From the NCBI GenBank assembly GCA_002501805.1, contig DAOI01000003.1, forward strand, positions 31,261 to 95,260: a stretch of 64,000 bases of DNA, written 5' to 3'. The notes beneath the pieces are model-generated. The model was not told the DNA's origin. It worked only from the letters and a program-made list of their open reading frames with translations, and searched no databases. The position numbers and the translations under genes are program-made. Position 1 is the first letter of the stretch, and each line of letters starts with the position of its first letter. The DNA comes from Euryarchaeota archaeon UBA463. GTDB taxonomy: Archaea > Thermoplasmatota > Poseidoniia > Poseidoniales > Thalassarchaeaceae. Positions 33,377-37,250 of this stretch are shown here, piece by piece.

Positions 33377-34264
33377 TCACTTGTGCTTCCAGCAGAATTC
33401 CCCGCCCCTGAATGACATGCCTCTGCACTTCTTATCACTCACAGGGTCTACGTAGGTGCAGTAAGCTGTCTTCAATTCCGACCTCGTTCCCACTGACTTG
33501 TCATCAATTCTACGGAACTTCTTGCCCTTCTCCTTGACCGAGGCGCTTCTCCTGATACTATCGAGCTCCCCCTTGTCGAACCAGAATGATCCGCAGTCGC
33601 CACATCCGTCAAGAACCAGGGAATCAATCTTGCCCCCCTCTTTCGGATTCTTATCCTTGGATGCCTCGTGTGCGGCTACTCCTATGACAACCACCAGCGC
33701 GAATACCAGAAGTATCGGATGATCAAAGGACATTCCCCCCAAATTTTCGAGGCCACCGCCCCCCTGTTGCCTGGGAAGCTCATAAAACACCCTTATCTCG
33801 ACCATCTTCCCTCCGCACGTCGGGCAATCGAGATCGCATGGCACCCCTTGTTCCAGTAGTGATTCGAGAGTTCCCACCTTGTCCGACTTATCCTTGAGTA
33901 TCGTCCCTATGTTCTTGGCATTTAGTACTGAACCCTTGCATTTAGAGCACTCAAAATAACCCATATCATTGACTATCTCATAGGACAGCTGACCGCATCC
34001 CCTCGGGCACTCAAGCTTCTCTAGATCGGCAATCTGCCTACGATGTGTCCTGCAGAAAAGAAGCCCCGCCATGGCACTTCGCTCGCAAGGCATTCCATTC
34101 GTCTTCTTGCCCATGCATTGAGTGACCCCTGGGTCCTGATACTGGTGCTTCCAGCAGTAATTGGATTTGTACTTGACATTCATTCTACATTGGGGGGACC
34201 CGGGTCGATTTTCGTCTACCCCCCTGCATCGACTCATAACAAGGCCATGCCATTGCACTGTCAT
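33377..34264 (-). CDS. Cys-rich membrane protein with multiple zinc-ribbon modules
   Basis: Three C-x(6-9)-C-W/R-K/T-H repeats (..YCWKHQ, ..FCRTHR, ..FCWKHK), a CPTCGG ribbon, one TM helix (ILLVFALVVVIGVAA), then CGDCGSFWFDKGELD (zf-TFIIB/PF13453-like). Confidence 0.45.
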   Translation of the reverse strand: MTVQWHGLVMSRCRGVDENRPGSPQCRMNVKYKSNYCWKHQYQDPGVTQCMGKKTNGMPCERSAMAGLLFCRTHRRQIADLEKLECPRGCGQLSYEIVNDMGYFECSKCKGSVLNAKNIGTILKDKSDKVGTLESLLEQGVPCDLDCPTCGGKMVEIRVFYELPRQQGGGGLENLGGMSFDHPILLVFALVVVIGVAAHEASKDKNPKEGGKIDSLVLDGCGDCGSFWFDKGELDSIRRSASVKEKGKKFRRIDDKSVGTRSELKTAYCTYVDPVSDKKCRGMSFRGGEFCWKHK

Positions 34265-34833: not shown

Positions 34834-34845
34834 TTTATTAATAAG
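34834..34845 (+). promoter_or_regulatory. TATA-box-like element (TTTATTAATAAG) about 24 bp upstream of the fumC ATG
   Basis: AT-rich box at archaeal BRE/TATA spacing, implying a leaderless or near-leaderless transcript that starts at the ATG at 34863. Confidence 0.3.
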
Positions 34846-34862
34846 TAATTAATGCCGAATAT

Positions 34863-36464
34863 ATGGCAAAGCACCGTGTAGGTGATCGTAGGATAATCAG
34901 CATTAGTATTCCAGAGGAAACCGCTAGGAAGCTAGACCGTAGAGTGGGCAAGGGCAAGACAAGAGGAAGGTCCGCTACAATTTCTAAGATGATTGAAGAT
35001 GGACTATCGTCAAGAAATTCTCATCAAGAGGACATCGAAGTCTCAACCCATCAGAGATCTGCTAGGGCGAATCCAGATGAAAATAGGATCGAGATTGATA
35101 CCATGGGAGAAGTAGTCGTGCCTGCAGATAGATACTATGGAGCTCAGACAGCCAGATCTCTTGAGAACTTCGATATCGGTGACGACATAATGCCAAGAGC
35201 AGTAATCAGAGCCTTTGGGATTCTAAAGAAAGCAGCAGCAGAAACCAACTCCCAACTTGGTCAGCTGGATGGCAACATCGCCTCTCTGATTTCCTCATCA
35301 TGCGATGAGGTAATTTCAGGTAGTCTCGACGGACACTTCCCACTAAGGATTTGGCAGACAGGATCAGGAACTCAAACAAATATGAATGCAAATGAAGTCA
35401 TCGCTAATAGGGCAATAGAGCTCGCAGGAGGAGAATTGGGCAGTAAGACCCCAGTCCACCCAAATGATCACGTGAACAGGGCGCAGTCTAGTAATGACAC
35501 ATTTCCAACAGCAATGCACATATCTTCAGCCGAGCAAATCACGAATCAATTACTCCCTTCAGTTCATCATCTAAGGGACGCTTTGGAGGCCAAAGCGCAG
35601 GAGTTTTACTCTATTGTCAAGATTGGCAGGACACACCTCATGGATGCAGTGCCACTTACTCTCGGTCAAGAGTTCTCAGGATACGTGTACATGTTGGACG
35701 CTGATATTCGGAGGATAGAGTTCGCATTGGCTGATCTATTCGAACTAGCGTTAGGGGGGACCGCCGTCGGAACTGGATTGAATACCCATCCCGACTTTTC
35801 AGAAAAGGTCGCCAACAGTATTTCTCAACAAACCGGCCTGCCATTCATCAGTGCAGAGAACAAGTTCTCTCAGTTAGCAGCCCATGATGCAATTGTCTCC
35901 GCATCGGGAGCACTAAACACCCTTGCGGTTTCATTAATGAAGATTGCAAACGACATCAGATGGCTCGGTTCTGGCCCTAGATGCGGAATCGGAGAACTGT
36001 CCTTGCCTGCCAATGAACCAGGATCCAGTATTATGCCAGGAAAGGTCAATCCCACTCAGTCCGAGGCTATGACGATGGTATGCTGCCAAGTTATGGGCAA
36101 CCATGCAGCCATATCCATCGGAGGTAGCCAAGGTAATTTCGAATTGAATGTATTCAAGCCGATGATGATTCATAACCTGCTCCATTCAATCAGAATCCTG
36201 TCAGACAGCTGTCGCTCGTTCACTTCCAAGTGTGTTAACGGATTAGTCGCTAATGAAGAGAAGATTTCCGAGCATTTGGAGAACTCTCTGATGTTGGTAA
36301 CCGCACTTAATCCTCACATTGGATACGATAACGCCGCGAAGATTGCCAAGCACGCCCACCAGAATAACCTAACACTCAGGGAGAGTGCCTTGAGACTGGG
36401 GTTGGTTACCGAAGAACAGTTCGATCACTGGGTCAAGCCAGAGTCAATGACAGGAAGTAGCTAG
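34863..36464 (+). CDS. fumC: Fumarate hydratase class II with an N-terminal ribbon-helix-helix-like extension
   Basis: [47 protein letters not shown] is the fumarase C signature. FumC-like N-terminal residues ([29 protein letters not shown]) start only at about residue 75. The extra N-terminus [40 protein letters not shown] has the beta-strand / helix / loop / helix pattern of CopG/Arc/MetJ RHH domains. Confidence 0.85.
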
Positions 36465-36494
36465 CTCTCATCACGAAAAAAATTATTTTGAAAG

Positions 36495-37185
36495 GGCCAA
36501 AGGTGGGAGCAGCAGGGGGTTCTGCTTGGGGAAGCTTTCCCCCCTGCGTACTCCGCAGGGTCCGGTTCCTCATCTCCAAAGGAGATGATTTCCCGGGTAG
36601 ACGACTCTGGAACCACTAGGGTTCCTTCGCCATTTTTCTGGACGTTTGGGTAATATCCCCCCAGGGGATTGCTCCCCTGTCGCCCTCCTCGATTCACTCC
36701 ATGGCTAGTATCACCATTTTGTTTCGTCGATCGGTACCGGTCCTCCACAGGTCTCCCTGCTCTCGTTCCCGGTGCGTTTCCCTAAGTTTCCTTCCCCTTC
36801 CTTGCGTCCGGTTATCTCCACTTCGTTTCCCGCACTCGTGCTCCAAGATTGCATCCATCTCTGGATGCCTTCCCTTCCTTCGTGTACCTTTGCAGTATGG
36901 TTTTCTGGTACGGTTTATGTTTTCCCCCCGAAGGGTTCGGTTCCGTTTTCCCCAGCTTTCCCCATTGCTTCTTTCCCTTCCTTGCGTCCGATCTTCCCAC
37001 ATTGGTTCTACTGCTGCCTATTCACCCACAGGTGATTTGGCTATTCCCCGCGCTCTTTTCAGAGCACGGATCTACCGTTCCGACTTTGCGGATCAGTTGT
37101 TGTGGCCCGCGGGTTTGCCGAAGCGCGCCCACACCACTCCCCCGGAGCGGCAAAGTCAACAGGGCAAGCGGCGGCAAATAAACCT
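36495..37185. other. ORF-free, strongly strand-asymmetric, hairpin- and repeat-rich interval; candidate large structured ncRNA of unknown class
   Basis: It spans ~690 bp between convergent genes. It is pyrimidine-rich on the + strand (GA-rich on -), has no credible ORF, and holds a run of perfect hairpins: CCCTGCG-tactc-CGCAGGG, CATCTCC-aaa-GGAGATG, GGAACC-acta-GGTTCC, ATCCCC-cca-GGGGAT, GCATCCA-tctc-TGGATGC. It also has three copies of CCCTTCCTT(G)CGT(C)C-like motif at about 36796, 36870 and 36975. Confidence 0.3.
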
Positions 37186-37201
37186 TTCGTTCAGTAACAC
37201 G

Positions 37202-37247
37202 TTTACAGTGGAAATAGGGGTCAGTAAATGTTAATTTCCACTGTAAA
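37202..37247 (-). terminator. 14-bp perfect inverted repeat (TTTACAGTGGAAAT ... ATTTCCACTGTAAA, 18-nt spacer) just 3' of the beta-propeller gene; ORB-like core
   Basis: A perfect palindromic hairpin immediately after the stop of the minus-strand gene at 37251, followed on the minus strand by TTTATTT. The arms contain CAGTGGAAA, and GGGGTC follows. Confidence 0.35.
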
Positions 37248-37250
37248 TTT

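Follow-up and report, generated by a model that had tools for sequence, protein, structure and literature searches.

The locus considered here raises the question of whether, and to what end, a central metabolic enzyme of an ocean archaeon carries its own DNA-binding fold. Among Krebs-cycle enzymes that have a further, unexplained role at DNA, class II fumarase is the best known, through its yeast, human and Bacillus representatives. The gene in question is the fumC of an archaeon of the Thalassarchaeaceae (marine group II, Poseidoniales); marine group II archaea are very abundant in the surface ocean. It lies within the stretch of 64,000 nucleotides that was analysed, hereafter the window, and the original prediction described it as a class II fumarase with an N-terminal extension resembling ribbon-helix-helix (RHH) repressors. 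The open reading frame begins with ATG and comprises 533 codons followed by a TAG stop. In its 533-residue product, referred to below as RHH-FumC, a complete class II fumarase is preceded by an N-terminal domain of 48 residues and a linker of 26. The positions of the features are collected in Table 1.

Table 1. Features of the RHH-fumC locus, with positions counted from the first nucleotide of the window.
Feature	Position	Strand	Basis
Complete gene, RHH-linker-FumC	34863..36464	+	ORF, Pfam and TIGR00979 matches, homologues, continuous frame
AT-only promoter element TTTATTAATAAGTAATTAAT, candidate operator	34834..34853	+	Conserved at a fixed distance from the ATG
Basic N-terminal arm, residues 1-10	34863..34892	+	Conservation in 34 diverse orthologues
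Predicted ribbon strand IISISI, residues 11-16	34893..34910	+	Alternation of hydrophobic and small polar residues, conservation, RHH_1 match
Predicted helix A (~17-28), G-K-G...G35-R36-S37 turn, helix B (~36-48)	34911..35006	+	AF2 model, conservation
Flexible linker, residues 49-74	35007..35084	+	Column entropy, length, pLDDT
FumC catalytic body, residues 75-533	35085..36461	+	TIGR00979, Pfam, solved structures
FumC signatures	35358-35387; HPNDHVN 35457-35477; SS loop 36021-36053	+	Sequence

The catalytic part bears out the predicted assignment. TIGR00979 is matched with 790.8 bits against a cut-off of 664.75, over residues 75-530 of the protein and positions 2-457 of the 458 in the profile, and the Pfam families Lyase_1 (PF00206, residues 82-412, E 7.9e-112) and FumaraseC_C (PF10415, E 8.8e-27) are matched as well. 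Residue 5 of E. coli FumC is aligned to residue 75 of the query; the fumarase models begin at residue 73-75, in agreement with the expected onset of FumC about 75 residues into the frame. The two protein segments quoted in the original prediction were recovered at residues 9-48 and 75-103. Solved tetrameric fumarases match at E about 1e-180 to 5e-200, and the solved human and yeast enzymes match residues 63-531 (E 1e-189 to 1e-199). The FumC signature residues, including the GSSxMPxKxN “SS loop”, are present and are invariant in 34 orthologues. By its sequence the enzyme is a catalytically intact class II fumarase, and a homotetramer with fumarate/malate hydratase activity is predicted.

No stop or frameshift separates the N-terminal segment from fumC in this open reading frame, and 14 contigs of independent samples carry the exact 533-residue protein. 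In the 120 closest protein clusters (74-96% identity), length is always 529-545 residues and the query is covered to 99-100%, so the arrangement is far from what chance would give. Comparison with orthologous fumC genes finds the extension fused: an uninterrupted frame runs from the domain into fumC in 78 of 80 species-level loci, and in the remaining two the domain again comes first and leads into fumC, which ends at a premature stop (products of 288 and 354 aa). The domain is encoded in at least 228 GTDB species genomes of Poseidoniales, in both families (Thalassarchaeaceae and Poseidoniaceae), and the fusion is older than the diversification of the order. The ratio pN/pS is 0.17 for codons 1-48 and 0.14 for the first 48 fumarase codons; the N-terminal domain is under strong purifying selection, like the enzyme core.

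A less attractive explanation of the same gene is an artefact, in which a frameshift has joined a small separate RHH gene to fumC, or in which translation truly starts at M43 or M81. Long-read contigs of a divergent lineage do show fragmented calls of the gene (81+451 aa; 147+328+57 aa). However, neighbouring genes on those contigs are also fragmented and the break points differ, and at one of these loci (L088) the homologous linker is still legible in the shifted frame, for which reason the split calls are ascribed to indel errors. The window and 75 complete species loci have an uninterrupted frame. Amino acids remain invariant while third-codon positions vary. A start at M81 would leave conserved fumarase residues, RIEID, upstream of the initiation codon, and no in-frame ATG, GTG or TTG occurs between M43 and M81. 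Since split calls come only from error-rich long-read contigs with broken neighbours, the frameshifted or split gene was rejected, and the artefact reading is essentially refuted. Gene decay in the divergent lineage was considered separately, when a 108-residue query returned only short, broken genes; this was judged to be a length bias of the search. The continuous frames, the pN/pS value, a stop codon usually 4-7 codons upstream of the ATG (80 species-level loci) and a leaderless-type promoter with a TATA-like box and a pyrimidine at -1 together support a genuine fusion that is translated as a single protein, and the extension is thus not a mis-called start.

The nature of the extension was approached through profiles, conservation and modelling. 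RHH_1 (Pfam PF01402) matches the isolated 52-residue segment with 21.0 bits, a marginal score against the gathering score of 20.5; the same model gives 19.5 bits on an 80-residue segment and 15.8 bits in the full-length protein. The match begins at residue 12. RHH_1 is the sole family matched, and 31 of 34 diverse orthologous domains match it (best E 4.5e-6). Invariant columns number 17 of 52 in the N-terminal segment. Across the 34 diverse orthologues, M1, H4, R5, G7, R9 and R10 of the arm are invariant, with conservation of at least 90% at A2, K3 and D8; the strand has an invariant I11 and S15 and a conserved S/T13; further on, G29, G31, R36 and S37 are invariant, and G35, A38, T39, I40, I44 and L48 are at least 90% conserved. 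The segment displays the RHH order of strand, helix A and helix B, with an alternating strand and a G-x-S/T/N turn that opens helix B.

The AF2 monomer model, of low confidence (pLDDT 65), places helices at residues 18-28 and 36-50; its strand is short (about residues 5-10, with DSSP bridges 5-6 and 9-10) and lies upstream of the ribbon placed at residues 11-16. The three best Foldseek matches are FitA (two chains of a single FitA-DNA entry) and E. coli apo-NikR, at TM 0.53 and E 1.7-4.8, which is not significant. NikR also provides the best RHH sequence match among solved structures, in which P. horikoshii NikR (2bj1) aligns ungapped over the strand (SISIP), helix A, loop and helix B (E 0.47, not significant). 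We also note that a truncated fragment from the divergent lineage is named “ribbon-helix-helix domain-containing protein” by NCBI. The proposed RHH-like character is therefore upheld by the profile, the orthologues and the strand-helix-helix model with FitA and NikR at the top of the structural matches, and the N-terminal segment did not fail to model as RHH. The domain is best regarded as RHH-type, with support from a marginal profile score and a low-confidence model.

The domain carries a net charge of +7 (pI 11.3), ranging from +4 to +9 over 120 homologues, in contrast to -16 (pI 5.5) for the enzyme. RHH modules of this kind would be expected to form homodimers that insert a two-stranded sheet into the DNA major groove, and the charge and basic arm are consistent with such a role. 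CopG, Arc, MetJ, Mnt and the RHH antitoxins (FitA, ParD) share with the domain the alternating strand, helix A, the G-x-S/T/N turn and helix B, and a basic N-terminal arm is also found in Arc and MetJ. The ribbon motif R-I-(I/V)-(S/T)-(I/V)-S-I-P resembles the MetJ strand KKITVSIP. Those proteins differ in being stand-alone, with 45-105 residues and often a toxin or co-repressor, whereas the present domain is covalently joined to a 459-residue enzyme. No toxin-like gene adjoins fumC, so that the gene does not form an RHH antitoxin pair with a neighbour.

An RHH-like module could also serve without DNA binding, in oligomerisation, stability or protein interaction, for example as a cross-linker or partner recruiter derived from an antitoxin. 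The marginal RHH_1 score, the antitoxin FitA as best structural neighbour and the dimerisation mediated by the RHH domain of PutA are compatible with this idea. Nevertheless, a net charge of +7, an invariant Arg/Lys/His arm and a phosphate-contacting G-x-S turn, all present here, are typical of RHH domains that bind DNA, and a toxin-like gene is absent next to RHH-fumC. FumC, moreover, is stably tetrameric without an extra domain. We consider a module of this type improbable.

Domain and enzyme are connected by a hypervariable linker, in which column entropy exceeds 2.5 bits from residue 49 onward and residues 51-59 have pLDDT below 50 in the full-length model. Its length is conserved: in 110 of 120 homologues, Met1 and the DTMG motif lie 76-77 residues apart.

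The RHH domain appears, from profile searches, to be specific to fumarase. Among 1.84 billion representatives only 44 matches were found; those inspected were RHH-FumC fragments with two exceptions, both distant stand-alone RHH proteins (E about 1e-4), and no other stand-alone ancestor or fusion partner emerged from this search. Public records label these proteins simply “class II fumarate hydratase”, and RHH is missing from their precomputed Pfam domains; the feature is consequently invisible in databases under the current annotation. No description of an RHH-fumarase fusion, or of such a domain on any fumarase, was found in the literature.

The order of parts recalls trifunctional PutA (proline utilisation A) of E. 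coli and Salmonella, which likewise has an RHH domain of about 50 residues at its N-terminus, followed by a linker and a metabolic enzyme. Through this domain PutA forms dimers and becomes an autogenous repressor of transcription (PMC5293562). PutA differs in its PRODH and P5CDH flavoenzyme domains, where RHH-FumC has a lyase of the fumarase/aspartase fold; it is also bacterial and operates through a redox-dependent membrane-binding switch, in contrast to a predicted soluble tetramer with an archaeal TBP/TFB promoter. The catalytic part of RHH-FumC contains Lyase_1 and FumaraseC_C only, and the protein is therefore an analogue of PutA and not a member of its family. NikR offers an architectural parallel, a tetrameric ligand-binding core with two flanking RHH dimers, as is predicted for RHH-FumC. 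Its C-terminal domain is a small ACT-like metal-binding domain in place of the FumC enzyme, however, and its linker is short as compared with 26 residues; with FumC as the C-terminal part and only a weak RHH resemblance, RHH-FumC does not belong to the NikR family. In BirA and other trigger enzymes, an enzyme with an N-terminal DNA-binding domain represses the genes of its own pathway. BirA combines a winged helix-turn-helix with biotin ligase and bears no sequence or fold relationship to RHH-FumC.

The region upstream of the gene supplies a candidate target. In the window, the AT-only element combines a TATA-like box at -29..-22, TTTATTAA, with a second block at -17..-10, TAATTAAT, and contains two ATTAAT hexamers 11 bp apart. 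The stretch TTTATTAATAAG at 34834-34845 extends from 29 nt (first base) to 17 nt (last base) before the ATG, which puts the TATA centre about 25-27 nt upstream and agrees with the predicted spacing of about 24 bp between the TATA-like box and the start codon. The conserved TATA-like element (-29 to -10) and a conserved pyrimidine at -1 indicate, from promoter layout, a leaderless mRNA starting at the ATG of the ORF. A bacterial promoter scan was set aside, the organism being an archaeon.

In most of 79 species loci the element stands at a fixed spacing to the ATG. Of 86 loci, 57 contain the 18-mer TTATTAATAANTNATTAA exactly once, every time at the fumC promoter position, and the element is a single site in the 64-kb window even with 3 mismatches. 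A/T-only runs of at least 11 nt are present in 69 of 70 fumC promoters, as against mostly 3-6 nt in 312 other upstream regions. The divergent lineage has TTAATAAC-N11-GTTATTAA between TATA box and ATG. AT-only sequences easily form palindromes by chance. The element overlaps the TATA box and is inseparable from basal promoter function; it may be just a strong TATA box with a promoter-proximal element. A regulon search of the 64-kb window and 80 orthologous loci (about 0.6 Mb) found no second site of the 18-nt motif or of looser versions. Among the matches listed in a metagenome motif scan were 80 unrelated loci, mostly AT-rich (16-50% GC), none adjoining RHH-fumC. Operator and reader gave no covariation signal, the ribbon and arm being invariant while the second promoter block varies; this block is missing in eight loci (two labelled Poseidonia) with identical ribbon and arm.

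The strongly conserved DNA-binding-type domain at the front end of the protein suggests that this fumarase probably also sits on DNA, and it may control genes. The explanation that we consider best, with a probability of about one half and by analogy with PutA and NikR, is that RHH-FumC acts as a “trigger enzyme” autoregulator with DNA-binding RHH dimers on the tetramer. Since a class II fumarase is a homotetramer and an RHH domain folds only in dimeric form, two RHH dimers would be expected per enzyme tetramer, in a NikR-like architecture. In binding double-stranded DNA, the very basic modules would place their two-stranded ribbon in the major groove, with the invariant KHRxGDRR arms next to it. 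The fumarase could then work as a transcription factor that, in the simplest case, represses its own leaderless promoter, with the AT-only element as candidate operator. As this candidate overlaps the TATA box and the stretch that immediately precedes the start site, binding is proposed to compete with TBP/TFB or RNA polymerase. Occupancy of the enzyme by fumarate or malate might modulate DNA binding; the fumarase tetramer would thereby take the role of the metal-binding core of NikR, the occupancy setting the binding of the RHH dimers. More tentatively, the protein can be pictured as a metabolite-sensing RHH-FumC whose ligand sets its binding to AT-rich operators or, alternatively, as a hard-wired link between fumarase and DNA.

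A rival explanation is a DNA-tethered fumarase, in which an RHH domain of low specificity would keep the enzyme on the nucleoid to produce or consume fumarate or malate locally, for example in the DNA-damage response, a role proposed for the class II fumarases of yeast, human and B. subtilis. DNA damage induces the class II enzyme of B. subtilis, which co-localises with the DNA of the bacterium, and in eukaryotes fumarase acts at double-strand breaks (PMC5711358, PMC6068284). Yeast Fum1, human FH and B. subtilis Fum-bc belong to the same enzyme family and are functionally linked to DNA; they lack a DNA-binding domain and depend on indirect recruitment or metabolite action, whereas in RHH-FumC the DNA-binding-type fold is within the polypeptide itself. 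Tethering would fit this precedent, the basic, DNA-binding-type character of the domain (conservation, RHH_1, charge) and the finding that ribbon and arm residues stay invariant across lineages with different promoter sequences. DNA-repair or replication genes near some loci (PolD DP2 in the window, an XPG/FEN-like gene in L087) are weak evidence in its favour and are not consistently linked to RHH-fumC. However, the characterised RHH proteins are, to our knowledge, sequence-specific operator binders, and tethering leaves the gene-specific AT-only promoter element unexplained beyond basal promoter function. We regard it as unlikely in comparison with the trigger-enzyme reading.

The fumC gene is flanked by a peptidyl-prolyl isomerase gene upstream and by a non-coding RNA region downstream. 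A structured RNA of about 670 nt with strong covariation lies directly downstream on the minus strand, in the region 36480-37150; it has no Rfam match, and this large RNA beside fumC is a separate lead of comparable interest. Its presence raises the thought that the domain binds RNA instead of DNA, for example this RNA encoded on the opposite strand. The domain is very basic, and fumC and the covariation-supported RNA adjoin in 54 of the 65 loci with enough downstream DNA; this adjacency may, however, be plain synteny, and some loci (several labelled Poseidonia/Poseidoniaceae) keep an identical RHH domain without the downstream RNA. RNA binding is not known to us for any characterised RHH domain, and we judge this reading highly improbable.

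A whole order of abundant ocean archaea has a DNA-binding fold fused directly to fumarase under strong purifying selection. The protein lends itself to a simple test system, the domain being 48 residues long, the candidate promoter fragment defined and both ligands cheap. If RHH-FumC is a regulator, the principle of PutA and NikR, an enzyme or ligand-binding core with RHH dimers, would extend to archaeal central metabolism, and Poseidoniales would couple flux through the TCA cycle directly to transcription. Alternatively, the fusion would hard-wire a connection between fumarase and DNA that requires recruitment in eukaryotes and Bacillus. Under either reading, this would be the first fumarase with intrinsic DNA binding, fixed across a globally abundant archaeal order.

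The reading frame of RHH-fumC opens with an ATG and encodes 533 residues, in agreement with the original prediction of an extension of ~75 residues ahead of FumC; the peptide quoted there and the upstream TTTATTAATAAG box are both found in their places. The equivalog model for class II fumarate hydratase (TIGR00979, NCBIfam; cut-off 664.75 bits) scores 790.8 bits over residues 75–530, and Pfam places Lyase_1 at residues 82–412 and FumaraseC_C at 478–531. Residue 75 aligns with residue 5 of E. coli FumC. Since fumarase models and solved fumarases align only from residue ~63–75 onward, the 74 residues preceding the fumarase are extra. The fumarase/aspartase superfamily has three signature regions; all of them are found here and do not vary among the orthologues, and the fumarase part is, judged from its sequence, intact. 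The full-length structural model is confident for the fumarase body, with pLDDT of ~60 in the N-terminal domain and <50 in the linker.

The sole family match of the extension is Pfam RHH_1 (CopG family), whose fold is ribbon-helix-helix (RHH) and which scores 15.8 bits with the full protein, 19.5 bits with the first 80 residues and 21.0 bits with the first 52, compared with a gathering score of 20.5 bits. The same family is matched by 31 of 34 diverse orthologous domains, with a best E-value of 4.5e-6. In a search of solved structures with a domain profile, the RHH of the Pyrococcus horikoshii regulator NikR aligned without gaps at an E-value of only 0.47. AlphaFold2, with a 52-residue alignment, returned a strand followed by helices at residues 18–28 and 36–50 with pLDDT 65; because the RHH fold exists only as an intertwined dimer, a low value is expected. 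Among PDB entries, Foldseek ranked highest DNA-bound FitA, an RHH antitoxin (two chains of one entry), and apo-NikR, these three matches having a TM-score of 0.53 and E-values of 1.7–4.8, which are not significant. The score of the first 52 residues and the strand-helix-helix order bear out the RHH-like character originally proposed.

Hallmarks of the fold include the alternating strand I-I-S-I-S-I-P and, at the opening of helix B, the invariant turn G35-R36-S37; the corresponding turn of RHH proteins contacts the phosphate backbone. The basic arm K-H-R-x-G-D-R-R is invariant; the domain carries a net charge of +7 (pI 11.3; +4 to +9 among 120 homologues) and the fumarase part one of −16. The domain might instead serve in oligomerisation or another interaction away from DNA, which we consider quite unlikely, and binding of RNA by it is very improbable. 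Under the NCBI pipeline one truncated fragment goes by 'ribbon-helix-helix domain-containing protein'; full-length proteins carry only the name 'class II fumarate hydratase', and RHH is absent from their precomputed Pfam domains. When 1.84 billion cluster representatives were searched exhaustively by HMMER, the domain profile matched 44 proteins, and all those inspected are RHH-FumC fragments or chimeras, save two distant stand-alone RHH proteins (E ~1e-4). An RHH of this type appears to occur on fumarase only.

Fourteen contigs from independent samples encode exactly this 533-residue protein. Its 120 nearest protein clusters (74–96% identity) all measure 529–545 residues at a query coverage of 99–100%, and their organisms, where the source names one, are Thalassarchaeaceae, Thalassarchaeum or Thermoplasmatota. 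Taking one genome per GTDB species, a scan revealed at least 228 loci encoding the N-terminal domain; the best 80 of these belong to both families of Poseidoniales (Thalassarchaeaceae and Poseidoniaceae/Poseidonia), and in 78 of the 80 the frame is continuous from the domain into fumC. Seventy-five of the continuous loci are complete at 519–592 residues (nearly all 529–536) and three end at a contig edge, while the other two loci have a premature stop further in, with ORFs of 288 and 354 residues. The extension is thus fused in related fumC genes as well, and the continuous frames and the identical protein on 14 contigs essentially exclude a frameshifted, separate upstream RHH gene, against which the original prediction had advised a check. 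That RHH-fumC is an artefact of annotation or assembly is scarcely conceivable.

The pN/pS ratio is 0.17 for codons 1–48 compared with 0.14 for the first 48 fumarase codons, and 17 of 52 columns in the domain alignment are invariant. The linker, residues 49–74, is hypervariable in sequence and near constant in length, and Met1 lies 76–77 residues from DTMG in 110 of 120 homologues. The same fusion is observed in more divergent lineages, probably also Thermoplasmatota, whose RHH sequences have diverged (MGKHNVGxSRIVSVSIPEDVAQELDRW...GRSAWIVQAIR and ARIVSVSFPSELLEKMEE...ENRSQWIVEAV). A conserved basic RHH-type domain is joined permanently, via a flexible linker of fixed length, to an intact class II fumarase, and the comparisons indicate that this fusion is real and old.

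Split RHH and fumC gene calls in the divergent lineages are indel errors of long-read contigs, in which neighbour genes are fragmented and break points vary by contig. We also note broken genes in the divergent loci L210–L213, a sample biased toward short broken genes by a 108-residue query search that gave only short proteins. Two independent short-read assemblies (L210:1252–2847 and L211:848–2443) share an in-frame TAG at codon 152 of the fumarase, a position that is Asp (GAC) in relatives; a deletion and frameshift removes the RIETDTMG...SLV segment in L212, and L213 is frameshifted after DTMG. Either pseudogenes present in the population or assembly variants could account for these cases. 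The contig NZEQ01000005.1 (L063), which bears the label 'Verrucomicrobiales bacterium ARS100', holds a typical Poseidoniales RHH-fumC with an archaeal promoter, and its label is most likely a binning error in a public MAG.

A stop codon is located 4–7 codons upstream of the fumC ATG in most species. In most of 79 species loci the element TTTATTAATAA[C/G]T[A/T]ATTAA spans the stretch from ~29–32 to 10–12 nt ahead of the ATG. The base at −1 is invariably a pyrimidine, and +1 coincides with the A of the start codon. The centre of an archaeal TATA box lies ~26 nt upstream of the start site. Since the TATA-like box sits at this distance from the ATG, a leaderless mRNA beginning at or beside the ATG is predicted, which argues for translation of the extension, as had been proposed from the box now seen conserved in most of the 79 loci. 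RHH-fumC would be expressed from a distinctive promoter of this leaderless type.

The AT-only element is unusual for these genomes. On the two strands of the 64-kb window, the 11-mer TTTATTAATAA (one mismatch allowed) has a single site, at the fumC promoter, shared with the 18-mer motif (three mismatches allowed). In 57 of 86 loci an exact copy of the 18-mer is present, one per locus and each time at the fumC promoter. A/T-only runs of at least 11 nt are present in 69 of 70 fumC promoters; in 312 other upstream regions of the same loci they are mostly 3–6 nt and never exceed 12. The window element holds two palindromic ATTAAT hexamers at a spacing of 11 bp, one turn of the helix. The element could be an operator for two RHH dimers, whose binding would block access to the TATA box and start site. 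This evidence is circumstantial: the first block is identical with the TATA box, the second is missing in a subset of loci with identical ribbon (predicted strand) and arm, and AT-only DNA readily forms palindromes. In one metagenome scan with the promoter motif, the matches listed were all unrelated, mostly AT-rich DNA.

In the divergent lineage, TTAATAAC-N11-GTTATTAA is situated between the TATA box and the ATG. The fumC promoter there reads GATTTAATAAC-N11-GTTATTAA(T/A)C-ATG, with the TATA-like heptamer repeated in inverted orientation; in L087:4940–5000, L088:4940–5000 and L212:1440–1500 the palindrome AACGGCCGTT lies within this repeat, and L210 has a direct TTTAATAA repeat instead.

Features in and around RHH-fumC (window positions unless stated otherwise)
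Feature	Position	Strand	Remark
295-aa ORF	33377-34264	-	
TATA-like box TTTATTAATAAG	34834-34845		
AT-only fumC promoter element TTTATTAATAAGTAATTAAT	-29 to -10 (from ATG)	+	
RHH-fumC	34863-36464	+	
fumC to beta-propeller interval	36465-37250		786 bp
Oligo-T tract	about 36475-36482		RNA region
Candidate large structured ncRNA	about 36480-37150	-	~670 nt; convergent with fumC
Called 177-aa ORF	36701-37234	+	probably spurious
BRE/TATA-like CGAAAGGTTTATTTG	37175-37189	-	promoter-like, for RNA
Inverted repeat TTTACAGTGGAAAT / ATTTCCACTGTAAA	37202-37247		perfect, 14 nt; 18-nt spacer

Nearly all Thalassarchaeaceae-type loci conserve the nucleotide sequence of the interval that separates fumC from the convergent beta-propeller gene, with 67–72% identity over ~770 nt in species whose FumC is ~75% identical. 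Species comparison gave no consistent reading frame and no 3-nt conservation periodicity across it. Conservation and covariation point to a candidate structured RNA, kept in 54 of 65 loci with sufficient downstream DNA. RNAalifold predicts 82 pairs on the minus strand of 27 species, of which 43 show compensatory double changes; paired cells make up 95.8%, compared with 85.4% in shuffles and 36–47% with partners slid by 1–3 columns, and the covariation score is 0.34 compared with 0.05–0.08 in the slid controls. The minus-strand hairpin loops are UUCG or GNRA (UUCG, GAAA, GAGA, GUAA), the two ends are connected through long-range helices, and a purine-rich module AACYGGACGMAAGGAAGGGGAA recurs at least twice, with clearly more copies in some species. 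No Rfam family matched the candidate at E ≤1, and it may or may not be related to Tan1, a published 229-nt Thalassoarchaea ncRNA (PMC5069720). The inverted repeat, partly conserved between species, follows closely on the stop (37251) that ends the minus-strand beta-propeller gene, upstream of the TATA-like box of the RNA, and is possibly a terminator or insulator between two minus-strand units.

Divergently upstream of the PPIase-fumC pair, the 295-residue ORF is abundant in paired cysteines, with several CxxC/CxxH zinc-ribbon-like motifs. It gave no confident Pfam family; its equivalent on one related contig has faint TFIIB-type zinc-ribbon matches.

Class II fumarases are tetramers, and the tetramer of RHH-FumC would present four RHH halves forming two RHH dimers, a layout resembling the two RHH dimers on the NikR tetramer. 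An RHH-enzyme fusion is already known in PutA (PMC5293562), as is fumarase moonlighting at DNA (PMC5711358, PMC6068284); full-text searches, which took in a systematic survey of archaeal fusions, gave no account of a fumarase that has a DNA-binding domain of its own. By analogy with the yeast, human and B. subtilis fumarases (PMC5711358, PMC6068284), the domain may tether RHH-FumC to the nucleoid for a DNA-damage or chromatin role, which seems unlikely. We favor, at a probability of about one half, a model in which RHH-FumC, in the manner of PutA (PMC5293562), would be enzyme and DNA-binding regulator in one; its own gene would be the simplest target, and fumarate or malate might tune its action.
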